DNA of 64,000 nucleotides, taken from positions 259,539 to 323,538 of the forward strand of contig CAWCSP010000005.1 in the NCBI GenBank assembly GCA_963798215.1. Reading direction: 5' to 3'. Positions 36,526 to 57,400 of this stretch are shown here, in pieces. Made by a program: the position numbers and the translations under genes. The notes under the pieces are model-generated. The model was not told the DNA's origin. It was given only the letters and a program-made list of their open reading frames with translations, and did no database searches. Source of the DNA: an uncultured Acidobacteriota bacterium (GTDB lineage: Bacteria > Acidobacteriota > Thermoanaerobaculia > UBA5066). Positions within the stretch are counted from its first letter, which is position 1. Each line of letters starts with the position of its first letter.

Positions 36526-36771
36526 ATGAAAAGGAAACTCGTCCAGGCCGGCAATTCACTCGCCGTCACGCTCCCCGCCGAGGTCGTCCACGCCTTCGGC
36601 CTGGAAAAAGGCCAGGAGGTGGACGTCACCGTTCACCCCGTCAGTGGCGCGGTGACCGTGCGCGCCGGAGCGGCACACTACGAGAACGGAGAGGTCACGC
36701 CCCGGTTCCGCCGGAAGGTCGCCTCACTCCTGAAGACGCGCGCCGGGGTTTACCGGGCCCTCGCGAAGTGA
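36526..36771 (+). CDS. AbrB/MazE-fold antitoxin (Phd-like partner of Doc)
   Basis: KLVQAGNSLAVTLPAEVVHAFGLEKGQEVDV swapped-hairpin motif. 4-nt overlap with the doc gene. Confidence 0.8.
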   Translation: MKRKLVQAGNSLAVTLPAEVVHAFGLEKGQEVDVTVHPVSGAVTVRAGAAHYENGEVTPRFRRKVASLLKTRAGVYRALAK

Positions 36772-37160
36772 TCGTCACCCTTTCAGCGGCGCAGCTCGCC
36801 GCCCTTCACAGCGAGCTGATGAAAGCCTTCGGCGGACGCGGGGGCGTGCGCGACCGCGGCGCCCTCGAAGCGGCCGCCGCGCGGCCGGGGATGACGTTCG
36901 ACGGAGAGGATCTCTACCCGGACCTCGCTGCGAAGGCCGCGGCGCTCATGCACTCGCTCGTCCTCGACCATCCGTTCGTCGACGGAAACAAGCGCGTCGG
37001 AGCGGCCGCGGCCGAGCTCGTCGTGGAAATCAACGGCTACCGCCTGAGGGCGGACGACCCGGACCTCGAGAGGGTCGCGTTCTCCGCGGCGAAGGGCGAA
37101 CTGTCCGCCGAGGCGCTCGCGATCTGGTTTCGCCAGAGGCTCGAGCCCGTGCAGGAGTAG
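36768..37160 (+). CDS. doc: Doc/Fic-family toxin (death on curing)
   Basis: Fic motif HPFVDGNKRVGAAAA. Confidence 0.88.
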   Translation: MIVTLSAAQLAALHSELMKAFGGRGGVRDRGALEAAAARPGMTFDGEDLYPDLAAKAAALMHSLVLDHPFVDGNKRVGAAAAELVVEINGYRLRADDPDLERVAFSAAKGELSAEALAIWFRQRLEPVQE

Positions 37161-37196
37161 CGTCCGCGCGCCCGGCGGCGCCGGCCATCCTTCCGT

Positions 37197-37857
37197 ATGA
37201 TGGCCTCCGTGTCGTACGTCGAGAAGAACCTCGCCGCGGGAGAAGAGATCCTCCTGCAGGCCGCGCTACCACTGGGTGAGGTTCGTGCCCGGCGCGTCGG
37301 TCGCCGTGCTCGGCGTCGTCCTGGCGGCGGCGTGCGCCCTGCTCGTCCCGGCCGAAGGCACGGAGCCCGCCCTGAGATCCGGGCTAATGCTCGTCGCCGG
37401 CGCCCTCGTCCTTGCCGGCATTCTCGCCATGGCGTGGCGCTGGCTCGTCGACTCCTTCGACGAGTTCGCCATCACGACCTTCCGCGTCATCCGCAAGAGC
37501 GGGTTCGTGACGCGCGACGTGCGCCAGATCCCGCTCGAGAAGGTGCAGGACGTCAACGTCCGCTCGACGCTCGGCGGCCGCTGGCTCTCGTACGGTGACG
37601 TCGAGCTGCAGGGCGCCGGCAGCGACAGCACGGTCGTCTTCCCGCGCATCCTCCACCCCGAGGAGTTCCGCAACGTCCTGATCACGCACACCCGCCCCGG
37701 CGGGAACGACGGCCTTGGCGGCCGCAGCGCGGCCGCTGCGCCGACGCGCGCCTCGGTCGAGGAGCGGCTGAAGGAAGCCGAGCGCCTCCACAAGGCGGGC
37801 GTCCTCTCCGACGCGGAATACCAGGAAAAGCGCCAGGCTCTGATCAAGGAGCTTTGA
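37197..37857 (+). pseudogene. Membrane bPH_2 (YdbT-like) domain protein with C-terminal SHOCT, frame broken once
   Basis: MMASVSYVEKNLAAGEEILLQA (frame 0) continues as RYHWVRFVPGA... in frame +1 at about 37259-37264. Then two TM segments, a PH-like core FRVIRKSGFVTRDVRQIPLEKVQDV, and SHOCT (GVLSDAEYQEKRQALI). Confidence 0.7.
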
Positions 37858-37889
37858 GGCGGACGTTCCCACGCGGGAACCGACGCTCC

Positions 37890-37908
37890 CCGGACATCCC
37901 CTGTCCGG
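37890..37908. promoter_or_regulatory. Perfect inverted repeat CCGGACA-N5-TGTCCGG upstream of the WYL regulator
   Basis: Read directly from the sequence. 118 nt upstream of the WYL gene start, in a 168-nt intergenic region. Confidence 0.35.
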
Positions 37909-37986
37909 GCATCGCCCCGACCTTTCCAGCACGGCGCGTAACGCCACTTTTCGTCTAATGCATTTGCATAAACGCTGACACTTCTC

Positions 37987-38007
37987 GGACACGCCCTGTC
38001 CGTGTCC
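37987..38007. promoter_or_regulatory. Perfect inverted repeat GGACACG-N7-CGTGTCC (candidate operator)
   Basis: Lies 19 nt upstream of the WYL gene start. An extra GTGTCC half-site follows at 38008-38013. Shares the GGACA/TGTCC core with the 37890 repeat. Confidence 0.4.
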
Positions 38008-38025
38008 GTGTCCTAACTGATGTAA

Positions 38026-39048
38026 ATGCCCGATAACGCGCTGGTAGGGGAATTGCAATCGTCCGATGACCTCATGCCCTTCAACGACCGGCCGTACTTC
38101 CGTAGGCTGCTGGACTTCGACGACCTCGTGCGTCGGGGGCGACCCGTCACGTGCGAGTCGCTGGCCGCGCGCTGGGAGACGTCCGGCAAGACCGTCCAGC
38201 GCTTCGTCGACCAGATCCGCACGGACTTTCAAGCCCCGGTCGTCTTCGACCGCAAGAAGCACTCCTTCGTCTACGAGGACCCCGACTGGCGCTTCCCGTT
38301 CCTCGACGTCTCCGGCGCCGACCTCTTCGCCATCGGCGTCGCAATGAAGGTCTTCCAGATCTACGAGGGCACGCCCGTCCTCAAGGACCTCAAGTCCGCG
38401 TTCGACCGCATCGCCCGCATGCTGCCGGAGTCGGTCCGCATCCAGCCGTCGTCGCTCGTCGAGAAGCTCTGGGTCCACCCGCAGCCCGTGCGCGCCATCG
38501 AGAAGGACGTCTGGGCCGCCGTGGCGAACGCTCTCAGGGAAAAGACGCAGCTCGACATCGACTACCGGAAGCCCACGGGCGACGCCTCGCGCCGCCTCGT
38601 CGAGCCGCTCGTCCTCGTCCACATGAACTGGGACTGGTTCCTCGCCGCGCGCGACCCCGACGACGGCCTCACGAAGACCTTCTACCTCGCCCGCATCAAG
38701 GGCGCGAAGAACACGAACTTCCACTTCACGCCGCCGAAGGACTTCGACGCCGCGAAGCACTTCGGCGACTCCATCGGCCTCTACGTCGGCGGCAAGCCCT
38801 TCCGCTTCAAGGTCAGGGTCGCCAAGGAGATCGCCCCCTGGATCACCGAGGTGCGCTGGCACCCCGCGCAGAAGCTCGAGGCCCTGAAGAACGGCGACGT
38901 CGTCCTCGACCTCCCGGCCGGCTCCCTCATCGAAGCCAAGCGCTTCGTGCTGTCGCTGGGGAGGTTCGGGAAGGCGCTGGGGCCGAAGGAGCTGGTGGGG
39001 GAGATGCGGGCGGAGATTCAGGCGATGCGGAAGGACTACGGGGCGTGA
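38026..39048 (+). CDS. HTH-WYL-WCX transcriptional regulator (BrxR/CapW-like)
   Basis: N-terminal wHTH (VTCESLAARWETSGKTVQRFVDQIR). WYL domain (LDIDYRKP...LVEPLVLVHMNWDWFLAARD...KTFYLARI). C-terminal extension. Confidence 0.85.
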   Translation: MPDNALVGELQSSDDLMPFNDRPYFRRLLDFDDLVRRGRPVTCESLAARWETSGKTVQRFVDQIRTDFQAPVVFDRKKHSFVYEDPDWRFPFLDVSGADLFAIGVAMKVFQIYEGTPVLKDLKSAFDRIARMLPESVRIQPSSLVEKLWVHPQPVRAIEKDVWAAVANALREKTQLDIDYRKPTGDASRRLVEPLVLVHMNWDWFLAARDPDDGLTKTFYLARIKGAKNTNFHFTPPKDFDAAKHFGDSIGLYVGGKPFRFKVRVAKEIAPWITEVRWHPAQKLEALKNGDVVLDLPAGSLIEAKRFVLSLGRFGKALGPKELVGEMRAEIQAMRKDYGA

Positions 39049-39627: not shown

Positions 39628-39846
39628 GTGGAAGCCGTTCTCGACTGGAAAGAGAGGGTCGTGTTCGATCCTGACGTGTGTCATGGCCAAGCCTGCATCA
39701 AGGGCAGCCGTGTGCTCGTCTCAGTCGTTCTCGACAGCCTCGCCTCAGGCAAGGCAGAAGACGCGATCGCGCGCGACTTTCAGATTTCCCGAGAGGACGT
39801 GCGTGCGGCGCTTCTCTACGCGGGGTATCGCCTCACGCGACGCTGA
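39628..39846 (+). CDS. DUF433 domain protein (antitoxin-like)
   Basis: DPDVCHGQACIKGSRVLVSVVLDSLASG...EDAIARDFQISREDVRAAL. Confidence 0.75.
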   Translation: MEAVLDWKERVVFDPDVCHGQACIKGSRVLVSVVLDSLASGKAEDAIARDFQISREDVRAALLYAGYRLTRR

Positions 39847-40440: not shown

Positions 40441-40608
40441 ATGGCAAGGCAAGTGCGCCGGTTCGACGTCGTCATCGAAAAAGACAGCGACGGCTATCTC
40501 GTTGCGTGGGTGCCGGCTCTCCCCGGCTGCCACACGCAGGCGCGATCTCACGACGAGCTCACGAAGCGCATTCGCGAGGCGATCGAGCTGTGCCTCGAGG
40601 TCGTCTGA
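40441..40608 (+). CDS. HicB/UPF0150-family antitoxin-like miniprotein (55 aa; below the ORF-track cutoff)
   Basis: Own translation: MARQVRRFDVVIEKDSDGYLVAWVPALPGCHTQARSHDELTKRIREAIELCLEVV. Confidence 0.6.
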   Translation: MARQVRRFDVVIEKDSDGYLVAWVPALPGCHTQARSHDELTKRIREAIELCLEVV

Positions 40609-40665: not shown

Positions 40666-43600
40666 ATGCACCTCTCCTCCGTCCCCCTCACCCTCGCCGC
40701 CACCGACCTCGGCCGCTTCCTCGCGTGCCGGCACCTCACCGGCCTCGACGTCGACGTCGCCTACGGCCGCCGGGCGAAGCCGCCGAAGTACCCCGACCCC
40801 TTCCTCGACCTCCTCATCAACCGCGGCCTCGCCCACGAGAAGGACTACCTCGGGAAGATCGAGAAGGCCGAGGCTCGGCCGTCCTCGACCTCACCGACAT
40901 TCCACGACGCCGACGCCGTCGAACGCACCCTCGAAGCCATGAAGGCCGGACAGCCCGCCATCGCGCAGGGCGCGCTCGCGGCGCGACGGCTGGTACGGCC
41001 GGCCCGACTTCCTCCAGAAGGTCGCAAAGCCCAGCTCCCTCGGCCCCTTCTCCTACGAAGCCATCGACACGAAGCTCTCCCGCGAGACGCGCGGCGCCAC
41101 GATCCTCCAGCTGTCGCTTCTACTCGGACCTGCTCGGCGCCGTGCAGGGCGTCCCGCCCGAGATCTTCCACGTCGTCACCCCGCTTCGCGACGGAGCAGT
41201 ACCGCGTCGCCGACTTCGCCGCCTACTACCGCCTCGTCAAGCGGCGCCTCGTGGAAGCGGCCGGGGGCGACATCGCCGCCCTCCTCGCCGCCAACTACCC
41301 CGAGCCCGTCGACTACTGCGACGTCTGCCGCTGGTGCAAGCCGTGCGACAAGCGCCGTCACGCCGACGACCACCTCTCCCTCGTCGCCGGCATCACGCGC
41401 CTCAACCGGCGCGAGTTCGAAGTCGAACGACGTCAAGACGCTCGAGCGCCTCGGCGACCTCGTCCTCCCCATCCCGTTCAAGCCGGCCAAGGGCTCGAAG
41501 GAGTCGCTCGAGAAGGCGCAGGGCCAGGCCCGCGTCCAGCTCGCGGGGCGCCGCGCCCACGCGCCCATCCACGAGCTGCTGCCCGTCGAAGACGGGCCGC
41601 GGCCTCGCGCGCCTGCCCGAGCCCTCGCCCGGCGACGTCTTCCTCGACCTCGAAGGCGACCACTTCGCCGAGGAAGGCCCGCGCGAGTACCTCTTCGGGA
41701 TGACGATCCTCGAAGGCCCCGGCAAGACGCGCCACGTCTCGAAGCTGGGCCGTCGACGCGGCGCCGACGAGAAAGCGCGTCTTCGAAGAAATCCTCGACG
41801 AAATCTCCCAGCTCTGGAAAGCCAACCCAGGGCTCCACGTCTACCACTACGCGCCCTACGAGCCCACCGCGTTCAAGAGGCTCATGGGCCGGCACGCCAC
41901 GCGCGCCCGCGAGCTCGACCGCATGCTGCGCGCCGAGCTGTTCGTCGACCTCCTGGCCGTCGTCAAGCAGGGCCTCAGGGCCAGCGTCGAGTCGTACTCC
42001 ATCAAGAAGCTCGAGGAGTTCTACGGCTTCACGCGCGAGGCCGACCTGCGCGACGCGGGCGCCGCCCGCCGGGCCGTCGAGTTCTCTCTCCAGACGGGCG
42101 ACCTCACCGTCCTCACCCCCGAGGTCAAACGCCTCGTCGCCCTCTACAACGAGGAAGACTGCGTCTCGGCCCTGCGCCTGCGCGACTGGCTCGAAACCCT
42201 GCGGCCCGACATTCCCCGGCCGCCGCGCAAGGACGGCGACGAGAGCGAGCAGCAGGAGCAGCGCAGCAAGGACGTCCAGGACGCGATGGACGCGCTCCTG
42301 AAGGGCGTTCCCGACGAGAAGACCCAGCGCACGAAAGAGCAGCACGCCCGCTGGCTTCTCGCCCACATGCTCGAGTTCCACCGCCGCGAAGACAAGGTCA
42401 CGTGGTGGGAGTTCTACCGGCTGCGCGACCTCACCGACGAAGACGACCTCCTCGACGAGCGCAAGGTGATCGCGGGAATGAGATTCCTGAAAAGGGTCGG
42501 AGGCACGAAGAAGTGCCCGATCGACCGATACACGTTTCCTTCGCAGGACATCGACGCCCGCGAAGACGACACGCTGAAGACCAGCGACGAAGGAACCCTC
42601 GGGCATATCGAAGCCATCGACCGCGACAAGCGCACCGTCGACATCAAGAAAACGCAGAAGAAGGCCGACGAGCACCCTTCGTGGGCATTCGTCCATTCCT
42701 ACATCTCCTCGAAGGAAATCGTCGCCTCCCTCATGAGCCTCGCCGCCGACATCGCGAAGAACGGCTTCACCCCGAAGTCCGCCGCCCGCGACCTCCTCCT
42801 CGGCAATCCCCCGCGCCTGAAGAAGGGCGCGTTCGGGCCGACGAAGGGCGAAGACCCGGTCGACTTCGCCAAGCGCACCGTCCTCTCCCTCGACCGCTCG
42901 CTCCTCGCCATCCAGGGCCCGCCCGGAGCGGGGAAGACGTACACCGGCGCGCGGATGATCGTCGCCTGCGTCGACGCGGGCCTCAAGGTCGGCATCACCG
43001 CCGTCAGCCACAAGGTCATCCGCAACCTCCTCGACGCCGTCCTCGAAGCCGCCCGCGAGATGAAGGTCTCCGTCCCCTGCGTCCAGAAGATCAAGACCGG
43101 CGCCGAGAAGTCCGACCCGCCCATCCCCGGCATCGTCGAAGTCACCGACAACGCCGGCGTCCTCGCCGCGCTCGACGACGGCTCCGCGCAGGTCGGCGCC
43201 GGCACGGCCTGGATGTGGTCGCGCGACGAGTACGCCGGCGCCGTCGACGTCCTCTTCGTGGACGAGGCCGGCCAGGCCTCCCTCGCCAACGTCCTCGCCA
43301 TGGCCCAGGCCGCGAAAAGCGTCGTCCTCCTCGGCGACCCGCAGCAGCTCGAGCAGCCGCAGCGCGGCACGCACCCCGAAGGCGTCGACGCCTCGGCCCT
43401 CGAGCACCTCCTCGCCGGCAGCAAGACGATGCCGAACGACCGCGGCATCTTCCTCGACAAGACGTGGCGCCTCCCGCCCGCCATCTGCGCCTTCACGTCC
43501 GAGCTGTTCTACGAAGGCCGCCTCGAATCGCGCCCCGAGCAGGAGCAGCAGAAGCTCTCCGGCGCGCCGCCCTACGAGGGCGCGGGGCTGTGGTTCGTGC

Positions 43601-44082
43601 CCGTCGAGCACGACGGCAACACGAACTCTTCCGACGAGGAAGTGAAGGCCGTCGAGGCCATCGTCGACACGCTCCTCAAGAAGGGCAGCCGCTGGACGAA
43701 CCAGAAGGGCGAGACGAAGCAGGTCACGCCCGACGACATCCTCGTCGTCGCCCCCTTCAACGCGCAGGTCAACCGCCTGCAGGACGCGCTCGACTCGAAG
43801 GGCATCCGCGTCGGCACGGTGGACAGGTTCCAGGGGCAGGAAGGCGCCATCGTCATCTACTCGATGGCCACGTCACGGCCCGAGGACGCGCCGCGAGGGA
43901 TGGAATTCCTCTACGATCTCAACCGCTTGAACGTCGCGACGTCGAGGGCCCGCTGCGCGTGCATTCTCGTGGCCTCGCCGCGCCTGCTCGAGCCCGACTG
44001 CAAGACGCCGAGGCAGATGCGGCTGGCGAATGCGATGTGCAGATATGCAGAGCTTTTCAGAAACGGTACTGGCGCACACTGA
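40666..44082 (+). pseudogene. RecB-like (TM0106-type) nuclease / RNase H-like / SF1 DNA2-type helicase fusion; frame broken about 6 times in the first 1.1 kb
   Basis: Stitched protein: LAATDLGRFLACRHL..., GWYGRPDFLQKV...YEAIDTKLS (PD-(D/E)XK), CDVCRWCKPC, DLEGDHF...YHYAPYEPTAFKRL. Intact helicase from 41884: GPPGAGKTY, FVDEAGQ, GDPQQL, VDRFQGQE, LNVATSRAR. Each frame step is +1, near 40983, 41119, 41187, 41427, 41594 and 41744. Confidence 0.8.
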
Positions 44083-44100: not shown

Positions 44101-44274
44101 ATGCTCGACTTCATCTGTCATGGTTGCAACCAGAAACGTCCGATGACCCAGGTCCGCGAGTGCCCCACCTGCCACAGGGTTCTCTGCGATTCCTGTCGCC
44201 GTGGAGTGACGACCTGCAAGGACTCGGACAAGGGTACGGCCGGGTGCAGCGGTCAGCTGCAACAGAAGCGCTGA
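44101..44274 (+). CDS. Zinc-ribbon miniprotein (57 aa; below the ORF-track cutoff)
   Basis: Own translation: MLDFICHGCNQKRPMTQVRECPTCHRVLCDSCRRGVTTCKDSDKGTAGCSGQLQQKR. AGGAG lies 5 nt upstream. First gene after the GC drop. Confidence 0.5.
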   Translation: MLDFICHGCNQKRPMTQVRECPTCHRVLCDSCRRGVTTCKDSDKGTAGCSGQLQQKR

Positions 44275-44279: not shown

Positions 44280-44366
44280 CGCTTGAACGTCGCGATGTCG
44301 ATGGCTTCTTTTGCATCGTTTCTGTGGTCGCGCCGCACCTCCTTTCCTTCTGGAGATTGCAATGAC
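44280..44366 (+). repeat. Decayed second copy of the helicase 3' end (motif VI region)
   Basis: CGCTTGAACGTCGCGAtGTCGAtGGC... aligns with 43924-44010 at an offset of 356 nt: first 26 nt 24/26, roughly 75% over the first ~65 nt, weaker beyond that, with indels. Translates RLNVAMSMASFASFLW..DCN versus RLNVATSRARCACILV..DCK. Confidence 0.65.
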
Positions 44367-46822: not shown

Positions 46823-49728
46823 CGGCGACGGGGCTCTTACTGACCTGCTCACCCTCTATTCAGGCGACGATGGGCGCTTGGGGCCATCCGACATCGGCCG
46901 GGGCCTCCGCCAGCTGTCTGAAATGCGCGCAATCGCGGTTGAGGCTGAGGGGCGGGCGATCGCGACGGGCCGCTTGCTCTCGGCGGACCCGAACGACGTC
47001 TTCCGCTGCCGCTTCGAACGCGCCCTTCGTGTGTGGGATTATGCGGAGGCCGCGTGGACCGAGGGCACGCAGCCCTGCACAGAGCTCCGGCAGACAGCTC
47101 ATCTATCGGCTACTGGGGCTCTCGACCGACGAAGCAGCCCACTGCACGCAGCTAGTACCGGTTGCGACGACGGCGGAACGCGCGACCATCCTGGCCGCCG
47201 AGCACGCCGAGTGGTACACGCTCGACCGAAAGCGTGCGAATGCCTTCTATTGGCCGTCGCTGGTCAAGCACCTGGGCGAAGCGCGCAATCTTACCGGTAC
47301 CGCGCTTAACGAGCTGGATCGGATGACGGACCTCGTCATGCGCAACCTCTCCGATCCGTCGAGACGCGAGGCATTCCAGAGTAAGGGCTTGGTGGTCGGC
47401 TTCGTTCAGAGTGGCAAGACCACGACTTTACCGGCGTCATCGCGAAGGCGATCGACGCTGGATATCGGCTGATCATCGTCCTGGCTGGCACCGTGGACAT
47501 TCTGCGTGATCAGACACAGCGTCGCCTCGACAAGGACTTGGTCGGCAAGGAACTTCTGAAGGCTGAAACGCTACCTGGAAGAGCAACAACGGAATACGAA
47601 ACCGATGACGACTGGGACGAATTCACAGAGCATGGGGGCCTTCCGCGGAATCTCGGAGGCACAGACATAATCCGCCTAACGACCTCGAGTGCGGACTACC
47701 GCGCCCTCCGACGGGGACTTCACGCGCTGGGAACTGCTCGGACCGTATGGAGACCGACCCGTCTGGGATCCGCAGAACCTGCGGACGATACCCGCCAGAC
47801 CGTGGTTCTGAAAGAAGAATCCGAAGGCGTTGAAGGACTTCATTACCGACCTCCAGCGGTTGCAGCGAACCCCTCTCTCGGAGATTCCGCGCTCGTGATC
47901 GACGACGAGTCGGATCAAGCGTCACTCAACATCCGCAGGCGCACAAGGGCGGAGCGCGAAGCCGCCAGGAAGGAGCGCAACGCTCGCACGAGCATTAACG
48001 GCCACATCGTTGAGTTGTTGGGTGCTTTACATCGCAGCCAATATGTGGGTTATACAGCAACGCCATTTGCCAATGTCTTCGTAGATCCCAATGACGCAAG
48101 CGACCTATTCCCTAAGGACTTTATCGAGGTCCTCCGAAAGCCAGACGGCTACATGGGAATAGAGGACTTCTTCGGCCTGTCTGGGTCAGCCGCAACCGGT
48201 CGCAAGGAGGAAGACTTCGTGCGGCACGTGTCCGGCGCTGACGACGCGAAGCACAACCTGCCCGAGGCCATCGACGCTTTCCTCCTTGCTGGCGCGGTTA
48301 AGCTGTTTCGACAGAAGGCCGGGGAGCGAGTGTCCGTTCGCCACCACACGATGCTGATCCACACATCCTCCAGCCAGGATGCGCATGATGCCGACCGGGC
48401 GAAAGTGGAAGAGTGCTTCATACGGGGAAAGTATTTTGGGAAGGACTCATTGAAACGCCTTGAGACGCTTTATGAGAGCGATTTCGCCAGGGTTAGCGCT
48501 AAGCGGCGAACGGCCACGGGCGCCAGCACTCTTCCTGAGTTTGTCAAGCTGCATTCTTATCTCGAGGAGGTGTTGGATAAGGTGAAGGCCCGACCGGTAC
48601 GCGTGGTCAATGGTCGTAACCCGGGTGATACGCCGGATTTCGAGCGATCGCGTGTGTGGTCAATTCTGGTTGGAGGCACGAAGTTATCGCGTGGATATAC
48701 GGTCGAGGGACTGACTGTTGGTTACTACCGTCGGCATCCGCAGACCGCCGATGCCTTGATGCAAATGGGACGTTGGTTCGGCTTTCGGGAAGGCTATTCT
48801 GACCTTGTCAGGCTCTATGTGGATCGACCGGACGAGGATTCCGCGGACGGGTTCGACCTATTGGAAGCCTTCAAGGGTGTGTGTGCTGACGAACAAGTGT
48901 TCCGGGAAACGGTTCGTCGTTATTCGATCGGCACCAGCCCTAGGCTTCTCCCTAAAGACCTGCCGCCTGGTTCCCTGTCATCTTCTGCGGCCGACGTCCA
49001 ACAACAAGATGTTCAATGCCGTCCTTGTCTCCGAAAACCTCGGAGGTCTGTGGGCTGAGAGGACGGTCGCTCCACGGCAAACAAGACAGATTTCGGAGAA
49101 TCGGGCACTAGCTGAAGAGATGCTGTCTGGGCGCGAGATCCTAAAGGGCCGAGCGACCGCGGCTGACGGGGCATTTGAGTATTTATGGAGCTGGCTGCCG
49201 AACGACAAGATGGCGGCATTCCTCGGCGGGTATCGATGGGATTCGGGCATCTGATGCCCTTGCGACCGTCAAATCTTTTATTTCAGGTGCGCTGGGCGCC
49301 CCTGGTTTCAGTGACTGGGTAGTCCTGATGCCACAGCTAACGAAGAGTCCTCTTGGGGCGTGGACGGTTAGGGAGGGCGTAGGGGTTTCAGTTACAAAGC
49401 GCTCGCGGGATCCGCGATCGCCTTACGGGCGCTTCAAAGCCTTCAGTCACCCGGACATCGAGTCCTGATGGAGTCGATCGTGCGGGATCGAATGCGCCCA
49501 GCGCCATTGATGGCCGAACGCCTAGCCCCGTCAGTCGCTGGCTGTCTTATCTATCCGTGTCGGGACGGCGTATCCGAAGACGTCACCATCGGTTTTGCCC
49601 TTTTCTTTCCGGAGAACCAGATTCAAGAGAATGCCAGATTCTCAGTGCGAGATCCGTCAAGGCAGGACGACGTGGTGGTGAACGTGCGGCCGATCCGGTC
49701 GTCACAGCCGCGGAGGGGAAGAGTCTAG
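46812..49728 (+). pseudogene. Z1-domain protein (P-loop/helicase-like partner of GHKL-DUF4420 modules), frame broken at least 8 times
   Basis: GLVVGFVQSGKT..FTGVIAKAIDAGYRLIIVLAGTVDILRDQTQRRL, ALVIDDESDQASLN, YVGYTATPFANVF, LVGGTKLSRGYTVEGLTV, MQMGRWFGFREGY. Breaks near 47095, 47425, 47708, 47800-47812, 47888, 48965, 49245 and 49455. Confidence 0.75.
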
Positions 49729-49792: not shown

Positions 49793-50226
49793 TCAGTAGA
49801 AAGGGCGGCGGCGCGTGGTCGAACGGATGCCACGGAGCACCGTCTCCACCGCTTCAGAGGCTCGCGTTTCGCACTCCCAGATCACGCGAACGGACCAGCC
49901 GGCGCGGCGGAGAGCGGCCGCCTTCCGTCGATCGCGCGCGGCGGTTTCGGCCCGCTTCTTCGACCAGAACTCCGGATTTGTTGCGGGTACGACGCGCCCG
50001 AATCGGCATGAATGAAGGTGCCAGAAGCAGCCGTCGACGAAGACGGCTGTCTTCAGTTTTGGGAAGACGAGGTCAGGTCGGCCGGGGAGCGATTTCCGGT
50101 GAAGTCGGAAGCGCATGCCGAGCCTATGGGCGATGCGGCGGACGATGAGTTTGCGGGTGTCGTGTCGCGGTCGCGGACGGCCTGCATGTTTCGCCGGCGC
50201 TGAGCCGGCGTCAGGACGTCGGTCAC
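49793..50226 (-). pseudogene. vsr: Very-short-patch repair endonuclease, one frame break
   Basis: TPAQRRRNMQAVRDRDTTP / KLIVRRIAHRLGMRFRLHRKSLPGRPDLVFP...FVDGCFWH...VIWECE. Break near 50150-50157. GTG start overlaps the endonuclease stop (GTGA). Confidence 0.8.
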
Positions 50227-51410
50227 GTCAAGAGCGGCCGCACGTGTGCGAGAAAGCCTTCGACACTCGTCAGGGAAGGCCGGTCGCGCAGGTGGAATTC
50301 CTTATGGAGACCCCTGGGAACGATGAGCTCGAGATTGGCGTCCTTCATCGCGGCCAGCTGTGCTGAAGAAATGCCACGCTGTAGCGTGAAGAGATGTTTC
50401 CTCGTAACGCGCCGTCCTTCGTGAAGGACCTGCCTCCATCTGTCGCGGCAGGTCATCTTCACGGCCAGCCACCGTGAGCTTCTCGACGGGAAAAGAGGGA
50501 TCCCGATACGCTTCTTCACTCGGAATGACGATGTCGGGCTCGCCCTCGATCTTCCTGGATCGCAGCGAGTGGGGAATTCCAGCGTCCTTGAGAATCTGGC
50601 TCACGTGATTTTCGAGCGAGCGACCGGCCCGCGACTTACGGCGGTTCGTAATGCTGCGGGCGGTCGTCAGGAAGTCGTCGATGTCGCGGAAGACACGGGC
50701 TATTTCGCGCTGACAGATCCGGCGCTCGACGAGCTGGAAGAGTCGGTATTCGCCTTCGACGAACCTGACGAGCTGCTCGTCAACGTCTGCGCGCCGGAAG
50801 TGCTTTGAAGCATTCGAGAAGCGCCGCGCGCGCCGCCTGCGAGAAGGCTTCGACCGGCGGGAACGTTTTGAGCGGCGAGGCAAACTCCAAAAACTTGCGC
50901 TCCACGCACTCACTCTCGGTTTCGGCCTTGGCAGCGCCCTTCTCGAAGATCGCCCACGCGTGAAGAAGTGAAACGCCGAGGACGCTCTGTACCTCCTCGA
51001 TGTCTTCATCCGTGTCCAGTACGAAGGCGCTGAACTCATCACGGGAATGGGGAACGATGATGAGCAGATTTCCCACCTGCTCGTCGACGAGAAACGGGAA
51101 GTCACGTCCGAACCTGGTCAGCCGGTACTCGCTGCGTGACTTCTCTCCATACCAAGTGACGCACGAATCAGTGATACGGCCGTCCTGCCAGCGAATCTTC
51201 AGAAAGTGCTTGTCCTTCCGGCCCTTCACGGGCGCGAACGGTGCGAACATCCTCCACGCTGATTTCGGGAGGTAGAACCCCGCCTGATGGCTGTCGGCGG
51301 CCTGATTCTTCGTCGCGCAGTCCGACGTCATTCGCCGAGATCACTTTGAGAAGAGCGTTTTCGTGCTCGAGGGCCTCTGCGATCGCTTCCTCGCAGGCAG
51401 GCGAGGCCAT
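50223..51410 (-). pseudogene. EcoRII-like type IIE restriction endonuclease, frame broken about 3 times
   Basis: EcoRII-N features: KVISANDVG..TKNQAADSHQAGFYLPK, SEYRLTRFG. EcoRII-C features: TNRRKSRAGRSLENHV, EPDIVIPS, KMTCRDRWRQVLHEG, KHLFTLQRGIS. Breaks near 51322, 50793 and 50470. Confidence 0.8.
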
Positions 51411-51414
51411 TTTG

Positions 51415-52616
51415 TCAGGCTCTCTTACGCCCGTACTCAGCGACGGGTGACTTCAGGAGGCAGTGCTTTTCCATTTGCCAGGCGAACGTCCGAAGGACCT
51501 CCCGGCCGACGGCCTCGACGACAGGAGGCACGACCGCGTTTCCGAACTGCCGATAGGCCCTGGTGTCCGACGACGATCGGATACTCGTCCGGGGAAGCCC
51601 ATCAGACGTGCGCACTCGCGCGGCGTCAGCCGGCGCGGCGACTGACGCTTCCCTTGCGGAATGAGGATTTCGGAGCCGTCTTTGTAGTAACGAGCACTAA
51701 GCGTGCGCGTGACGCCGCCGGGATCCGCGATTCCCAAAGCCGAAGCCGTTTCCCTTTTCTTTGTGGCGTCGCGCGTATTCCTGCAGGTAGGCCCAGAGAT
51801 GCTCGCTCAGCGTGTACTTGTCCGAAGGCTCTTTCTCCAAGATGTCCTGCAGCTTCGGGCGTGGCGCCAAGGGCGCGGCTGGGAACTCGAAAGGAGGAGC
51901 GGCGCCAGAACCTCGGCGATCGAAGCAGACGATGAAGATGCGTTCTCTGTGCTGCGGCACCCAAAGGGCGGCATCGATGACAGCGGCGTGGACGACGTAA
52001 TCCAAGTCCTCGAGCGTTTCGCGAATCACTTTCCACGTGCGGCCCGAGTCATGGGAGAGAAGATTCTTCACGTTTTCGAGGAAGGCGATCGGTGGCCGTT
52101 TCGCTTCAATCAGTGTGGCGAGCGTGAAAAAGAGATTCCCCTGGTCGGCGCAGCGGAAGCCGTGCGCGCGGCCGAGGCTGTTCTTCTTGGAAACACCGGC
52201 GATCGAGAACGGCTGGCAGGGAAAACCGGCCGCCATGATGTCGTGATCGGGGATGTCCTCGGCCCGCACCTTCCGGATATCGCCGGCCGGCTCTTCCCGA
52301 ACCAGGACTTGAGCGTCTTTTGCGCGTACCGATCCCACTCCGAGGAGAAAACGCAGGTGCCGCCGAGCTTCAGGAGTGCGGTCCGAAAGCCACCAATCCC
52401 GGCAAACAGGTCGACGAACCTGAAAGGAAGGGCGCCAGGTACAGACTTCTCGACGACGGCGCTGGGGCCGGAGAGGGGAATCTGCCCGCCGTCCTGGGCC
52501 TTGCGTAGGACTGACACGACGAACTCGCGTTTCGAGACGCCATAGCGGGCAGATTCTTCACTGATCCACGAATCGACCTCCGGGGGTACGCCCCGGACTA
52601 ACATGTCCCGGCTCAT
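51415..52616 (-). pseudogene. dcm: DNA (cytosine-5) methyltransferase with about 45-aa N-terminal extension, frame broken about 3 times
   Basis: Motif [55 protein letters not shown]. Breaks at 52296-52298 (CCC), about 51733, and 51591-51594 (GGGG). Confidence 0.88.
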
Positions 52617-52742: not shown

Positions 52743-53372
52743 TCACGCCTTTGTCGCTTTCGCCGGGACGTTCTTCACCTCGTCGGCGATACGTCGCAGG
52801 CTGGCGAAAGCAACCGCCGGTGGCACGGCCTCGCGAAGCTTCAGGATTCCCGCATGGCACGTGCGAATTTTCTGCCGGGACCCGCACGGACACTTCCAGT
52901 GGCCTTTGACATCCCCGTTGGCGAGGAGCTTCATGGCACTCAGTAGCCCTTCGGGCTCACTGATTTCAGTCCGCTCTCTGTAGAAGTCGAGGATTCCATC
53001 GATCCCGTGCCGTCGCTCGCCGAATGGCCAAACCCCATGGGCCAGATAGTGAAGGTAGCCCACGAAGAAGCTGTTGAGCGGGCCCTGCAGAAAAGAAAGA
53101 ACCGTGGAGCCCGCCGGCCAGTGGCTAAGCCCCTCCTCCGGGAGAAAAAGGCAGAGCTTACCGTCGCCGTCTACATGGTTCTCGTTAAGCTGGGGCACGC
53201 GGCCGCCCACCTCCCAAGCGACCGGAAAGCTGGCCGGGTGGTCACGTGCGAGGAGGACCTCGATCTGGAACCGGTCAACGACCACCGCCCCGACGTTAAC
53301 GGGGAGGCTGCCACGCACGCGGGCGGAATCACCCCCAATGACGAAGTAGAGGTTCGGGTAGGTGGAAGCCAC
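52743..53372 (-). CDS. E2/UBC-like protein (CBASS type II-short accessory) with SEC-C-like zinc knuckle
   Basis: FPVAWEVGGRVPQLNENHVDGDGKLCLFLP matches the E2 HPN-x-G-x-C-L pattern (candidate catalytic Cys). C-terminal HWKCPCGSRQKIRTCH. Reading frame intact. Confidence 0.65.
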   Translation of the reverse strand: MASTYPNLYFVIGGDSARVRGSLPVNVGAVVVDRFQIEVLLARDHPASFPVAWEVGGRVPQLNENHVDGDGKLCLFLPEEGLSHWPAGSTVLSFLQGPLNSFFVGYLHYLAHGVWPFGERRHGIDGILDFYRERTEISEPEGLLSAMKLLANGDVKGHWKCPCGSRQKIRTCHAGILKLREAVPPAVAFASLRRIADEVKNVPAKATKA

Positions 53373-53409
53373 CGACCGCTCCTCCCGTTTGAGGAACTCC
53401 GGCTGGCGC

Positions 53410-54317
53410 TCAAACCGAGGCCGGCGCGTCCAGCGGGTTTGCTCTCACCGTGATGATGGATGGCGCCCTCTGGATCGCCTCCCGTTTCTCGACTTCCGTG
53501 GCTTCCTCGATCCGGCCGAGGGACTCCCATCCGCCGCCCTCAATCCGGGCCAGGCTGTTGCGCGCGGCCGCGGACAGGAGCGTCTTCGTCGTGTCATTTA
53601 GTGCGTCAGAGAGGTCATTCCCGTCAGGATTCGCCGGGTCCTTCACGCACAGGGCTGACGCCTATCGCGGAACTGGGTCAGCACGTGCAGGATCTGATCT
53701 GACAGGGATTCGGACTTCTTGGACAGGAAGAGGAGGTCGATCACAGCGAGCTCGAGGACGAATGTCTTCAGATTGACCGCGTTTCGAACGTTCCAGAGCT
53801 TCATCAGGCGAATCGCGGGCCGCACGCCGCTGTCCCGGATGTGCGCGATGTGGATATCGAGGTTCGTCTTCTGGCGCCCCTTCTCGGCGCAGTTTCTGTA
53901 GAGGAAGACGTTGCCATCATCGCCGTCGATGAATCGGCCCGGGACCACGTCAATGTGGAAGTCGCCCCGCGACGCCGCCTTGGACCTCAACCTCAGGGCT
54001 GAAGGCTTCCGCTCGACGAAGTACTCCTTCTCGAGGACCGCGGCCGCATTCTCGTAAATGTCTTTCAAGGTATCCCCGGCCGTGGTGTCGTCGCGGCCGA
54101 AGCAGCACGCGATATCGAGGTCGTACGACTCGCGGATCATCGTGCACTTCGCCTTCGAGCCGGCATAACGGAGGGCGGGGGGCCGGGAAGCCCTCGATGA
54201 GGAGGCGGTCCACGTCGGTCCGACGCGCCCTGAGGGCCTTCAGCTCGTCAGAGTCTTCCTTCAGGGTCTGAGCTTCGATGACGGAGTCAAGGTAGGTATT
54301 CGGGTCTTTCTCGCTCA
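53410..54317 (-). pseudogene. Compact CD-NTase/SMODS-like nucleotidyltransferase, frame broken twice
   Basis: RYAGSKAKCTMIRESYDLDIACCF (GS...DxD), third acidic residue in DFHIDVVP, KDPANPDGNDLS. Breaks in the G6 run 54177-54182 and near 53655. ATG overlaps the cap5 stop (ATGA). Confidence 0.7.
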
Positions 54318-55531
54318 TAGGGATCCTTTGGTTACGGTGATGGTGGGGGGGTACCCCTGGGCACGACGGAAGTCGTAGACGAGGAGCGGGGGGTGCGACG
54401 CGGAGGAGGGCTCTGCCGCACGTGACAGCGACCGGCGCTGGCACCGCGGGAAAGAGGTGGATCACCTTCAGGTCGGGGTGGTTCTGCGCGATGACGCGCA
54501 GCGCAATCTGGTATTCGCGCTCGAACTCGTCGAGGTCAGCGCGCCGACTGAGGAATTGAGGGTGCGGTGTGGCAGAGGCCAGCTTCAATTCGTACAGCGT
54601 GAAGGTCGAGTCGATCGTCACCGGGAGCGCGGTGACGCCGATTGACCCGCTTAGCGGCAGCAGGAAGGCGACGCAACCTGCGTTAGTGCCCTGGCGCAGA
54701 ACTGAAAACTTGTAGTGCGCTGGGATTCCCTTCTCACGCCACTTGCGGTTGTTTTCGGCCCCCCGATGGCGCTGGTAGAGGGACGTCGGGACCTTGTCGC
54801 TCAACTGCGAGCCGAAGTGGATGAGGACCGGGATCGAGGCGATGGCAAAGACCGAAATGTGGTCGACCTGCTGCCGAGCGAGGCGGTCGGCGTACAGCCG
54901 AGGGAGCTCCTCGTCGATCTTGCGGGTTGCAGTCGTGAGGTACGCCTCGTCCCCACATCGTGATCGTGGAGAGGTCGATGAGGAACGGGTCGTCAGACTC
55001 GGGGTAGCGAGGTGCGACCGCCTCGTGGAGCTGGCCGGGCGGAAGGCTGAATTTCTGGCCAGCTACGTTACCCCGGAGCACGACGGCCGTCGTCCGCGAG
55101 TTGGGTCTTAGGGAGGTGCCATGCTCGATCCGCTTCTCGTGCTTCGTCTTGTATGCGCGAAGGACGCCCACCGTGTACTGCTCCGGGTGGTCGTCGATGA
55201 GCTTGTGGCACTCGGGACAAAGGAGCATCAGGTTCCTGACGTCATTGACGCCCTGTGCCGCGCGCGCGATGGGGTGTTTGCCGCGCGGGCCGCCGGCACT
55301 GAAAGCCACGATGTGGGCCACCTGCGCGAAGTTCCCCTCAGTCAGCGTGAGCGGGTGGCGGAGCAGGTACTTGTTGTGCCCGTCGAACTCGCACCGGCCG
55401 CCGGCACGCACCGCGAGGGCGAGGCGTCGGAACTGGGGTATCTCGCGAACGGGGCGAACGGGGCTCGGCTTGGAGGCCCTGCGGCAATGGTGTGCGTGCG
55501 GCCGATTCTTTGCCCTGGGCCGCCCCCGCAT
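54314..55531 (-). pseudogene. cap5: HNH endonuclease-SAVED effector (Cap5-like), frame broken twice
   Basis: HNH: CEFDGHN...HIVAFSAGGPRG...NLMLLCPECHKLID. SAVED: ISVFAIASIPVLIHFGSQL and VIHLFPAVPAPVAVTCGRALL. Breaks at 54951-54954 (CCCC) and 54388-54393 (G6). Confidence 0.8.
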
Positions 55532-55632
55532 GAGTATCTCTGGTCGTCTTCGGCATGCGCCGTCTCCCGTTACAGGATATCGCTTCCGGAATAAGGATAC
55601 GCTCGGCCAGTAATCTTGTCAACGGACCTGTG

Positions 55633-55646
55633 TAGGGATATCCTTA
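55633..55646. promoter_or_regulatory. Near-palindrome TAGGGATATCCTTA in the cap5/capH divergent promoter region (candidate CapH operator)
   Basis: 12/14 symmetric around GGATATCC. Related half-sites GGATAT at 55575-55580 and GGATAC at 55595-55600. Abuts the capH Shine-Dalgarno AAGGAGG. Confidence 0.4.
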
Positions 55647-55674
55647 AGGAGGATCTTTCTATTGAGGTGCCCCC

Positions 55675-56054
55675 ATGCCGTCTGTGCCAGCCATGAATCT
55701 CGTTGAATACGTTGGTGGGCGCATCCGCGAACTGCGCGGAAACCTCTCCCAGGAAGCGCTCGCTGCCAAGCTGGAGGTCGCGACGAATACAGTTTCCCGC
55801 TGGGAGACTGGAATCTACCGGCCGAGCATCGAAGACCTCGATCGCCTCGCACGGTTCTTCAAGGTGTCGATCCTGACTTTCTTTTCCCGGATGCGGCCAG
55901 CGGCGACGACCTGCAGTTCGTTCGCCTTCGCAAGGCGGCAAGCGGTCTGAAACAGGAAGACGTCGAAGAGCTGGAGCGCTACGCCGAGTTTCGGAAGGCG
56001 CGGTATCGGCTCAGTCAAGCGAAGCGGCCGGGGCGGAAACCAAAGGCCCTGTGA
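55675..56054 (+). pseudogene. capH: XRE-family HTH regulator (CapH-like), one frame break
   Basis: IRELRGNLSQEALAAKLEVATNTVSRWETGIYRPSIEDLDRLARFFKVSI. Continues in another frame as PDAASGDDLQFVRLRKAASGLKQEDVEELERYAEF after a break near 55879-55888 (T/C runs). Confidence 0.75.
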
Positions 56055-56696
56055 GCCGGAGTGCTTATTACGAGGAGATGAAGGCGAGCGCCCGAGAGAC
56101 GCGCCGTCTGTTCGGCTTGGAGACTCCACGCGTGCGCCTCTCCGACCTCAGAAAGATCTACAAGGCGCAGAACATCAAGATCGATCTGTGGAAGCGGAAG
56201 CTCAAGGGGTTGCGTGGTGCATATTTCTGTGACGAGTCCGGAGCCAGCGTGATGATCAACGCGAAGCTCCCCCCGGAGCCGCGCATCTTCACCATGGGAC
56301 ACGAGTTGAAGCATCACCTATTCGATCGGAAGACGCGTGACTGCTTGAGTCTTTCGCCGCCGATGATCTCGTAGAAGTCGGCATAAGGTGTTTTCGGGTG
56401 AGCTCATTTTTCCGGAAGCTGACTTCTCGACGTGGTGCGGCCGGCTCGGAATCCAACCGGCTGCGTGCCGGGCCGAGGACCTCATTCGCCTCAAGCGGGA
56501 AACCCAGACGACGCTTAGCTACGCCGGCCTGGTAAAGCGCGCGACTCGGCTGGGCTTCGCCGAGGGCGACGGACTAGAGAACGTCCACTGGAAGAAACTC
56601 GAAGAGCAGATCTACGGCGAGCCCGATTGCGGAGCACATCACCGCGCACGGAAGGCGCGGGCCGCGAGAGCCCAGTTGCTACGCGGGCCGGGCTAG
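56051..56696 (+). pseudogene. capP: ImmA/IrrE-family zinc metallopeptidase (CapP-like), frame broken twice
   Basis: HExxH motif FTMGHELKHHLFD, downstream VFSGELIFPEADF. Breaks near 56350 and 56385. GTG overlaps the capH stop (GTGA). Confidence 0.75.
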
Positions 56697-57400
56697 CAGA
56701 CAGGGCTGGGAAACCTCGTCTTCCAGAGCAGGCCTTCCCAGAAACGCAGCACCCACTGTTCCTCGCCGGTGTCGCTCTGCGCCGCCCCTTTGAAGCGATA
56801 GTCGAAAACGCGCGAATAGGGGTACCGTCCTGCCGCCCCCTGCCACCAGCCGGGGAAGGCGCCGTCAATCTGCGTCACATGGCTGAGGCCCTCGAAAGCG
56901 ACGGGACTGGCTTCCGGCAAGACCGCGCCCTGCTCCAGGAGGTAAAGCCCTCGGACGATTTTCCAGCTCACGCGCCGGATGCGCTCGTCTTCATGGTTCA
57001 TTGCGACCACGGTGCCTCGGCGCCCCGAGGTAGTCGTTTCATGCTCCCATTTCATCTCCCGGAAGGCACGCCCGAAAAGCCTCTTCGTGCCTTCGTGTCC
57101 TGAGACGTTCTTTAGGAAGTCGCCGGTCAGCGCACCGCCCGCCCATGTGTTGGCGACATGAAACCGCAGGGTCGCGATGAAGTACTCCTCGTCGTCCTTA
57201 TCGGAGTTGTTGCATTGCGTGTGCGTTGGAAGCGTCCACAAGTCCGGTTTCAATTCCTCGAGAATGGACTCGGCAAAGAAGTCTCTCGGTGGGATGTGAT
57301 CAGCACTTCTTGGCTTCGTCAGCCTCTCGCCGCAGAGGTAGCAGACGCCGAGCTTCGGTCTTCTCAGTACACCGTCGACGTCAAGCTTCTTGAAAGCCAC
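56693..57400 (-). CDS. HNH-motif protein of unknown function
   Basis: CYLCGERLTKPRSADHIPPRDFF...PTHTQCNNSDKDDEEYF (CxxC...DH...HxxCN). About 170 aa of uncharacterised C-terminus. Intact. Its stop overlaps the capP stop convergently. Confidence 0.5.
   Translation of the reverse strand: MAFKKLDVDGVLRRPKLGVCYLCGERLTKPRSADHIPPRDFFAESILEELKPDLWTLPTHTQCNNSDKDDEEYFIATLRFHVANTWAGGALTGDFLKNVSGHEGTKRLFGRAFREMKWEHETTTSGRRGTVVAMNHEDERIRRVSWKIVRGLYLLEQGAVLPEASPVAFEGLSHVTQIDGAFPGWWQGAAGRYPYSRVFDYRFKGAAQSDTGEEQWVLRFWEGLLWKTRFPSPVC

Follow-up and report, generated by a model that had tools for sequence, protein, structure and literature searches.

A probable defence hotspot with exchanged cargo beside a nuclease-helicase gene in an uncultured Acidobacteriota bacterium

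The DNA discussed here, called the window, is a stretch of 64,000 nucleotides (nt) from an uncultured Acidobacteriota bacterium (contig CAWCSP010000005.1 of assembly GCA_963798215.1, positions 259,539 to 323,538 of the forward strand), and it is a segment of an Acidobacteriota chromosome with a high content of guanine and cytosine (GC). It is likely that this segment holds a defence hotspot in which a 12.6-kb block of cargo was swapped into place beside a backbone dotted with toxin-antitoxin (TA) genes, and in which the many frameshifts of the cargo come from sequencing errors. The slot spans 44,083-56,692 and is bracketed by two convergent genes, one for a nuclease-helicase and one for a protein of 235 amino acids (aa). 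The left edge of the slot is marked by a WYL-WCX regulator and the nuclease-helicase, and the right edge by the 235-aa gene, transcribed towards the helicase. The cargo itself is foreign DNA of lower GC content that was acquired horizontally and recently. It comprises a Mza-like GHKL-DUF4420-Z1 module, a dcm-EcoRII-vsr operon and a type II-short cyclic oligonucleotide-based antiphage signalling system (CBASS). All three systems are of known kinds and the locus is an ordinary defence hotspot. A previous sequence-only reading of the window had described one acquired island of 21 kb, at 36.5-57.4 kb, with at least four immune modules and five TA-like pairs. The genes that it named are present in the order given, as judged by Pfam and PADLOC, and the defence-system profiles of PADLOC recover MzaB, MzaC and MzaD, Vsr, MTase_II, the CBASS cyclase, E2 and effector, and capH/capP. 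Its acquired block was confirmed as a distinct unit that starts at the helicase stop codon, but one with a span of 12.6 kb rather than 21 kb.

Base composition sets the left limit of the cargo. The GC content is 0.711 over positions 1-33000, 0.674 over 33-44.08 kb and 0.610 over 44083-57400. The drop that had been proposed at 44,083, right after the helicase stop, is a sharp one, since adjacent 200-bp intervals go from 0.68 (43800-43999) to 0.56 (44000-44199). Past this step the tetranucleotide correlation with the core of the window falls from 0.92-0.98 to 0.73-0.89. The GC content at third codon positions (GC3) is 0.92 in the helicase gene versus 0.6-0.8 in the cargo genes, and the backbone genes at 36.0-44.1 kb (GC3 0.89-0.96) have a codon usage like that of the host. 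Housekeeping genes lie intact at 1-20 kb (mutS2, dnaG, rpoD, polA and a selB-like GTPase gene).

Further evidence comes from related contigs, several of which were collected by a protein search with the helicase followed by look-ups of gene context. The gene at 40666..44082 (+) encodes a TM0106-family RecB-like nuclease joined to a superfamily 1 (AAA_11/AAA_12) helicase (NCBIfam TIGR03491 and TIGR00376). Its homologues are 1108-1157 aa long, have the domains RNase_H_2, AAA_30, AAA_11 and AAA_12 and are 81-90% identical. The relatives found in this way are L081 (94.7% nt identity), L083 (87%) and L084-87 (84%, including GCA_003152095.1), and all of them keep the WYL regulator and the helicase. 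The similarity of every relative to the window ends at about 44037-44052, within the final 15 codons of the helicase gene. Beyond this point L084-87 carry a bacteriophage exclusion (BREX) system with BrxB, BrxC, PglX(-like) and PglZ, L083 carries a long array of TA and TY-Chap (TY-chaperone) genes, and L081 carries a fragment of a transposase gene together with a gene for an Eco57I-like methylase. A 9.7-kb Illumina contig from Logan (L094) carries both flanks. Its positions 9450-9675 match window 44037-43812 (the 3' end of the helicase gene) at 89.8%, and its positions 538-1253 match window 57418-56703 (the 235-aa gene) at 87.6%. Between them lie 8.2 kb of cargo with genes for a SNF2 helicase, a BrxB-like protein, an AAA ATPase and a Fic protein with its antitoxin. 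Because L094 has both flanks around different cargo, the 235-aa gene is a conserved gene of the right edge and not cargo.

How did the cargo enter? The sequence-only reading had found no evident route, as it saw no integrase, transposase or flanking tRNA. These observations hold. Pfam matches of the slot and its surroundings contain no integrase or transposase domain, and 44.1-58.9 kb is wholly assigned to genes, with no room for one. The sole tRNA of the window is a tRNA-Met at 5507, and an Rfam scan of the window gave no other match. A search for direct or inverted repeats of the att type returned short families of low identity, besides one 26-nt repeat at the left junction. A megablast comparison of 36.5-57.5 kb with plasmids gave a single match of 129 bp, which is at the level of chance. 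A route is nevertheless suggested by the relatives, since different cargo between the same flanks points to a recombination hotspot and not to an integrase-borne element. Most probably the cargo replaced an earlier set of genes when the conserved flanks took part in homologous recombination. No contig reached has the helicase gene directly adjoining the 235-aa gene, as an empty slot would, and empty sites were seen only for two of the TA cassettes.

The 26-nt repeat is found in the 3' coding end of the helicase gene (43924-43949) and recurs 356 bp away at 44280-44305, with 24 of its 26 positions identical. The second copy lies just before the GHKL gene, was seen in none of the relatives, and is accompanied by about 45 more bases of weak similarity. 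The repeat may be a recombination scar or may be due to chance. Its two copies bracket a Cys-rich (zinc-ribbon or RING-like) open reading frame (ORF) of 57 aa at the junction (44101..44274, +), which scores 20.9 bits against Pfam Prok-RING_2, below the cut-off of 22.4, and has no further match in PADLOC, NCBIfam or PHROGs.

The DNA to the left of the slot is of a different nature. When genomes were scanned with the N-formylglutamate amidohydrolase of the window (34790-35806), one close relative (L001) was found, the uncultured Acidobacteriota metagenome-assembled genome MFD01872.bin.2.157, with 90% protein identity. It matches window 22851-39155 in collinear order, with 88-95% nt identity, except for three cassette-sized gaps, which correspond to an MNT/HepT cassette, a MazE/Doc cassette and a third stretch at about 32.6-33.8 kb. 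In related Acidobacteriota contigs the backbone at 36.0-44.1 kb is collinear and 84-95% identical, and TA cassettes are its sole indels. The MNT nucleotidyltransferase and HepT genes (34050..34770, +; Pfam NTP_transf_2 3.4e-12, HepT-like 8.5e-25) lie in window 34000-34813, in place of which L001 has about 41 bp. The MazE/AbrB-fold antitoxin gene (36526-36771; MazE_antitoxin 1.1e-08) and the Doc/Fic toxin gene (36768-37160; Fic 2e-18), both on the + strand, form a 709-bp cassette (36472-37180) that is absent from L001, where positions 36471 and 37181 abut. Since two cassettes have exact empty sites in a collinear genome, the TA cassettes entered the backbone at 34-40.6 kb one by one.

These data bear on the single 21-kb island of the earlier account, with its five TA pairs and its four or more immune modules taken as independent. 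The span does have a high density of defence and TA genes throughout, and the GC content of 33-44 kb lies slightly under that of the core. An island of this extent is nevertheless very improbable and is largely refuted by synteny. The left part of the span is conserved, collinear DNA with host-like GC3, the TA cassettes have exact empty sites of their own, the single sharp break in composition is at 44,083, and the 235-aa gene is conserved next to different cargo. It had been said that a shared gene order in related genomes, with no break in composition, would speak against an acquired island. Such an order was found for the backbone at 36.0-44.1 kb, and past it the cargo differs between relatives. 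The nuclease-helicase is not counted here as an established immune module, since no defence library names it as a system and its PADLOC matches, to MkoA, MkoC and DpdJ, are at the level of helicase domains only. The count of at least four immune modules is thus reduced to three recognised systems, and the independence of two of these, the Mza-like module and the EcoRII operon, is questionable.

The remaining backbone genes and cassettes lie between the MazE/Doc cassette and the helicase gene, with one exception. The 155-aa gene at 36039..36506 (+; GC3 0.89), which precedes the cassette, has no match in Pfam, PADLOC, NCBIfam or PHROGs. It had been put forward as a defence candidate by association, as had the 57-aa ORF at the junction and the 235-aa gene at the right edge, but it is aligned without gaps to L001 at 95.5% nt identity and is therefore conserved backbone, for which guilt by association is weak. 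A bPH_2/SHOCT protein gene (37276..37857, +; Pfam bPH_2 5.6e-12) also belongs to the backbone, with 89.6% nt identity to L001 and in-frame indels only. The WYL-WCX transcription regulator is encoded at 38026..39048 (+; Pfam WYL 4.5e-13, WCX 6.9e-13; PADLOC WYL 3e-27). Its gene is 86-91% identical in L001, L081, L083 and L084 and is a conserved partner of the helicase gene. Next come genes for a HicB-like antitoxin (39106-39315) and a HicA toxin (39312-39554; Pfam HicA_toxin 2e-12), both on the + strand. The first of these ORFs has no Pfam match but resembles the solitary HicB ORF nearby (BLASTP 7e-06), and the same pair follows the WYL gene in L083. A DUF433 antitoxin-like gene (39628..39846, +; Pfam 2.8e-19) is paired with DUF5615 in L083 and is without such a partner in the window. 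The DUF4160 (40351-40091) and DUF2442 (40081-39833) genes on the - strand (Pfam 1.8e-15 and 2.6e-16) are absent from the same place in L083. The last gene before the helicase encodes a solitary HicB-like antitoxin of 55 aa (40441..40608, +; Pfam HicB_lk_antitox 29.5 bits, cut-off 27).

All of these cassettes resemble type II TA modules (Doc, HicAB, HepT/MNT, DUF4160/DUF2442 and DUF433) in their family-level Pfam matches and small two-gene layout. They differ from them in that two of the window genes are solitary and antitoxin-like and in that the partner of Doc has a MazE fold. Of the five TA-like pairs reported earlier, three are therefore pairs and the other two are the solitary DUF433 and HicB genes, while the MNT/HepT pair is an additional one outside the range considered. 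The pair described as Phd/Doc does contain Doc, but its antitoxin has the MazE/AbrB fold and is not Phd. In L084-L087 (for example L084 3433-10098) genes for a DUF2779 protein and a 163-aa protein are found between the WYL and helicase genes, where the window has TA genes, and this interval is therefore a second, small variable slot. In all relatives a small zinc-ribbon-like gene lies no more than a few kb from the WYL regulator gene, at 74-87% nt identity and with differing neighbours (window 33757-34119 on the - strand; L081 1062-1228; L083 7907-8074; L084 662-826).

The arrangement as a whole is similar to defence hotspots with BrxR-type WYL regulators. The likeness consists of a WYL-WCX protein and conserved flanks around cargo that is specific to each relative, including BREX in L084-87. 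The WYL-WCX protein shares the architecture of the BrxR, CapW and DriD regulators, but its similarity to solved ones is weak, with PDB sequence matches (E about 1e-05) to PafBC and WYL-domain regulators. In contrast to the BrxR-type arrangement, TA genes and the 1,130-aa nuclease-helicase lie between the regulator of the window and the cargo. Control of the cargo by the WYL-WCX protein is a conjecture.

At the other side of the slot, the 235-aa protein (56693..57400, -) belongs to a rare family with an alignment motif of the form CxxC..DH..H..CN. A search with the protein yielded 29 homologues only, among them one at about 87% identity, which is the edge gene of L094. Invariant residues include T56, H60, C63, N64, D70, E71, R140, R143, W146 and K147; C20, C23, D34 and H35 are nearly invariant in the alignment. 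An AlphaFold2 model of the protein is confident (predicted local distance difference test score, pLDDT, 80.9; predicted template-modelling score, pTM, 0.79), but has no significant Foldseek match in PDB or BFVD. No sequence match was found in Pfam, PADLOC, NCBIfam, PHROGs or PDB, and an hhalign comparison with the HNH domain of Cap5 was not significant. The label of HNH-like that the protein had been given comes from the motif only and finds no counterpart among profile libraries or folds. Relatives of the gene adjoin a CBASS (L103), the SNF2/BrxB/Fic set (L094) and genes for an integrase, a primase and an AAA_21 protein (L100). This protein is the one item at the locus that could hide something new. 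It is rather improbable that the conserved genes around the slot are active components and not mere landmarks. In that case the 235-aa family could be a new stand-alone defence or nuclease gene that moves along with defence and mobile DNA, and the regulator-helicase pair could sense DNA damage and control the cargo.

The first system of the cargo starts about 280 bp past the helicase stop. It consists of a gene for a MzaB-like GHKL ATPase (44362..45830, +; HATPase_c_3 by Pfam in two frames; PADLOC MzaB 8.5e-15 and 5.2e-11), a gene for a MzaD-like DUF4420 protein of the PD-(D/E)XK type (45831..46800, +; Pfam 1.1e-24 plus a fragment at 1.4e-04; PADLOC MzaD 1.5e-04) and a gene for a MzaC-like, helicase-like protein with a Z1 domain (46839..49690, +; Pfam Z1 9.8e-48; PADLOC MzaC 5.3e-49). 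After frame correction 253 of 478 residues of the GHKL protein are identical to that of a related operon (L088). The nearest Z1 homologues are 49-50% identical and 940-975 aa long. The closest Z1 operons have the order dcm-GHKL-DUF4420-Z1, with a leading dcm gene of 509-525 aa, and vsr follows Z1 in L089 only. The window has no dcm gene upstream of GHKL. The usual guess for the GHKL-DUF4420-Z1 family is an ATP-driven, methylation-aware nuclease complex, and mzaABCDE is a validated defence system. The likeness of the module to the mzaABCDE system of PADLOC consists of GHKL, DUF4420 and Z1 in the order of the closest operons. In contrast to that system, the window has no methylase gene in the operon and only a weak MzaD match. 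Furthermore, no match to MzaA or MzaE (AIPR) was found by Pfam or PADLOC among the fragments of 44.1-49.8 kb, where the three genes fill the space, and the module is therefore called Mza-like and not a member of mzaABCDE. The same three-gene likeness extends to a cluster of a predicted system for which a core of Z1, DUF4420 and C5 methylase has been proposed, to which repair endonucleases are added (Miller et al. 2022, PMC9523054).

The second system is encoded convergently to the first. A Vsr very-short-patch repair endonuclease gene (49793..50240, -; Pfam 2.5e-20, with the N-terminal piece in a second frame; PADLOC 4.4e-24) is preceded in the direction of transcription by the gene for an EcoRII-type restriction endonuclease (50223..51410, -; EcoRII-N 1e-14; EcoRII-C 2.1e-23 and 2.2e-25 in two frames) and by that for an EcoRII-associated C5 cytosine methyltransferase, Dcm (51415..52616, -; Pfam DNA_methylase; PADLOC MTase_II 2.3e-72). 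The reconstituted EcoRII protein is 33-35% identical to products of plasmid EcoRII genes over 94-99% of the length. The DNA_methylase profile is matched in pieces 1-43, 44-231, 236-290 and 288-322, which are four fragments that alternate between two frames. Dcm is also extended at its N-terminus by about 70 aa (52400-52616, -; MSRDMLVRGVPPEVDSWISEESARYGVSKREFVVSVLRKA...), a stretch without a Pfam match. By eye the extension looks like a ribbon-helix-helix DNA-binding domain, and this would be in keeping with a methylase that regulates itself. The operon resembles EcoRII-Dcm restriction-modification systems with Vsr (type IIE/IIP) in its EcoRII-N and EcoRII-C domains, its C5 methylase and its co-directional Vsr, in the order dcm, restriction gene and vsr. 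The L. brevis plasmid has the same order of dcm and restriction gene. The system of the window differs from known ones in the low EcoRII identity, in the Dcm extension and in the frameshifts as sequenced.

In E. coli the specificity of EcoRII is CCWGG, and the enzyme cuts only when more than one unmethylated site is present. By analogy, Dcm would protect the EcoRII sites of the host, taken as CCWGG as in EcoRII itself, and EcoRII would cut incoming DNA that is unmethylated. Vsr would repair the T:G mismatches that arise from deamination of 5-methylcytosine and would so limit the load of C-to-T mutations.

It is possible, though doubtful, that the two operons form a composite system in which the single EcoRII-type Dcm, with Vsr, marks self DNA for both the GHKL-DUF4420-Z1 and the EcoRII effectors. 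Such an arrangement would change only how many modules are counted and does not conflict with the hotspot account. The closest Z1 operons do carry dcm first, with vsr after Z1 in one case, and the only dcm and vsr genes of the window sit in the operon that adjoins a Z1 module without its own. An island with EcoRII, Z1, DUF4420 and Dcm has been described in C. diphtheriae BH8 (PMC5379612), and the core proposed by Miller et al. likewise joins a C5 methylase and repair endonucleases to Z1 and DUF4420. However, the Dcm of the window is of the EcoRII-linked kind, as 192 of 306 residues (63%) are identical to the Dcm beside EcoRII on the L. brevis plasmid. It is unlike the Dcm of Z1 operons, which is about 510 aa long; with that of L088 it shares 38% identity over 63 aa only. 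The two gene sets are also convergent, without co-transcription, and adjacency within a hotspot is expected by chance.

The third system is a CBASS. It has an intact gene for an E2-like protein of 233 aa (52743..53444, -; PADLOC E2 5.2e-46, profile 6-223 of 232) and a gene for a small cGAS/DncV-like nucleotidyltransferase (CD-NTase) of about 300 aa (53410..54318, -; PADLOC Cyclase PDLC00803 2.3e-47, profile 45-208, with 213-249 in another frame). The N-terminus of the CD-NTase (MSEKD...) is found at 54318 in a third frame, and the translation contains the GS...DLD motif. The effector is Cap5, with HNH and SAVED domains (54315..55531, -; Pfam SAVED 1.9e-28, HNH_2 5.8e-08; PADLOC Effector/SAVED_HNH models, with PDLC00746 matched at 14-177 and 180-367 in two frames). 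The stop codon of its gene overlaps the start of the CD-NTase gene (54315-54318), which suggests translational coupling. Divergent from Cap5 are genes for a CapH-like helix-turn-helix (HTH) repressor (55675..56054, +; Pfam HTH_3 7.9e-15; weak PADLOC capH match, 4e-05) and a CapP-like M78 (ImmA/IrrE) metallopeptidase with an HELKH motif (56078..56696, +; Pfam Peptidase_M78 5.7e-05; weak PADLOC capP match, 3.4e-06). From about 55873 onwards CapH is probably encoded in the -1 frame (FLFPDAASGDDLQFVRLRKAASGLKQEDVEELERYAEF), which would give about 125 aa rather than the 91-aa ORF.

Thus the components of a type II-short CBASS are found together, with a CD-NTase, an E2 as the only ancillary protein and an HNH-SAVED effector in one operon, and the divergent HTH and M78 genes of a CapH/CapP pair beside it. 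No gene for an E1 domain or JAB (Cap3) protein was found, and 52.7-56.7 kb has no unassigned space for more genes. In the sequence as it stands, E2 alone is intact and the other four of the five genes are broken in frame. On a rhizobial plasmid the genes for CapP, CapH, a cyclase, a small protein and HNH-SAVED are laid out similarly. Compared with known CBASS loci, the cyclase of the window is small and Cap5 shares about 31-33% identity with examples from plasmids. A metagenome scan with the E2 protein, aimed at the whole island in relatives, found one distant locus only, at 39% identity. By analogy with characterised members of these families, phage infection would activate the CD-NTase to make a cyclic oligonucleotide. 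This would bind the SAVED domain of Cap5, whose HNH domain would degrade DNA so that the cell dies before the phage completes its cycle. The E2-like protein would modify, tune or restrain the cyclase. CapH would repress the operon, and CapP would cleave CapH upon DNA damage and raise expression.

The need for frame correction had been recognised but was understated. The breaks were mapped by frameshift-aware alignment of proteins to DNA with homologues as guides. The S. meliloti CapP and CapH guides were weak (scores 64 and 71) and L103 was used instead. The cyclase of the locus with the 39% identical E2 was too distant to serve as a guide and was discarded, as it gave spurious shifts. There are four frameshifts in GHKL, two or three in DUF4420, seven in Z1, one in Vsr, three in EcoRII, four in Dcm, two in Cap5, at least two in the CD-NTase (from the PADLOC profile coordinates), one probable -1 shift near 55873 in CapH and two in CapP. 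This amounts to about 29 in the 12.6-kb cargo, from which just the E2 gene and the 57-aa ORF are free. Outside the cargo there are eight in the helicase gene and one in a LysR gene, and the total is about 38, spread over 40.9-41.7 kb and 44.3-58.2 kb. Another patch of frameshifts had been suspected at 10.8-14.4 kb but was rejected, since this stretch contains an intact polA and an intact PHP-domain gene.

Quite probably these frameshifts are consensus errors of long-read sequencing in a stretch that varies between strains and is poorly covered, in which case the organism itself probably has intact systems. The catalogue to which the nearest relatives belong is Nanopore-only and was assembled with Flye and one round of Medaka; its authors point to indel errors where coverage is low (PMC12313526). 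The alternative is a decaying island, in which loss of selection has turned the defence genes, along with the 5' third of the helicase gene, into true pseudogenes. This is unlikely. The eight helicase events are all +1 or +2 insertions and are confined to 870 bp (40870-41742, in the 5' third) of a 3.4-kb gene, with none in the next 2.3 kb. Conservation of the amino acid sequence is undiminished there. After correction, the 5' third is 78-87% identical to an intact, Illumina-derived guide protein (P0005), and the rest is mostly 77-93% identical, with one block at 52%. The sister long-read contig L081, which is of the Flye style, has +1 insertions of its own elsewhere in the helicase gene and four in the WYL gene, which is intact in the window. 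L083 has no insertions over the aligned stretch of the helicase, and L084-87 encode the intact guide protein; relatives derived from Illumina data show no such insertions. Similarly, CapP is intact in the Illumina contig L103, which is 94.5% identical in nt over window 56114-57429. Relative to L103, the CapP gene of the window has two 1-nt deletions, with single bases lacking at 56346 and 56383, and one compensated pair. The cargo also contains at most one in-frame stop codon (a TGA in a doubly shifted stretch of Z1) and no large deletions, and the Pfam and PADLOC profiles are covered from end to end across frames. PolA, RpoD, DnaG and the genes of 58.9-64 kb are intact.

Several observations weigh against error as the origin of the frameshifts, or against a slot with two clean edges. 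The frameshifts of the cargo have both signs and are not tied to homopolymers, so that the classic signature of Nanopore data is missing; a homopolymer origin of the indels was rejected, since most of them lie outside homopolymers. Between the window and L103 there are 5 indels to 68 substitutions, which is not an extreme ratio. As decay would give, the frameshifts are confined to variable DNA: the dense stretch at 44.3-58.2 kb coincides with compositionally foreign DNA, and 1-40 kb and 58.9-64 kb are clean. Thin coverage of a region that varies between strains would explain this confinement too. The Z1 module lacks its usual methyltransferase and might have been crippled already. Exchange of the cargo through the flanks is deduced from a few contigs only. 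Beyond the 235-aa gene the DNA differs between the window, L094 and L103, and the right side is not cleanly bounded. It is therefore a second variable stretch with an outer limit beyond the window. The composition does not return to the core value within the window, as the tetranucleotide correlation with the core is 0.70-0.89 from 44 kb through the end. The recovery of GC that had been placed at about 57.4 kb is real but local, as it covers the LysR gene only (0.67-0.73) and is followed by values of about 0.60-0.65 from 58.6 kb. Sliding-window GC and tetranucleotide profiles thus bear out the left break and give no clean boundary on the right.

The genes of this right-hand stretch include a LysR-type regulator gene (57443..58330, +; Pfam HTH_1 and LysR_substrate, profile cut at 158/209) whose frame is shifted near 58.17 kb. 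Directly after it lies the C-terminal remnant, of about 200 aa, of a gene for an apiosidase-like protein with a collagen-binding domain (58302-58898; Pfam Collagen_bind_2 and only the C-terminal part of Apiosidase). This genuine gene remnant is a true truncation, and therefore some real decay or rearrangement has occurred on the right side, which also counts in favour of decay. A glycan or exopolysaccharide-type cluster occupies 58950-64000, with genes for a CoA-ligase-like protein, a FAD monooxygenase, a methyltransferase and a polyprenyl glycosylphosphotransferase. Its GC content is about 0.64 and its tetranucleotide correlation of 0.70-0.75 is as far from the core as that of the cargo, so that atypical DNA runs to the end of the window.

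The locus adds another example of a defence hotspot, in an uncultured soil Acidobacteriota, where the slot marked by a helicase gene is occupied by CBASS and restriction systems in one genome and by BREX in a related one. It also calls for caution in the scanning of genomes, as an apparent island can merge conserved backbone with true cargo. For long-read metagenomes, it suggests that consensus errors pile up in strain-variable cargo, so that defence genes would look pseudogenic and would be missed by automated finders. Two small leads emerge for the biology of these systems. One is a Z1 module without a methylase of its own beside EcoRII, Dcm and Vsr, and the other is a rare 235-aa family, without a fold match, at the edge of the slot.

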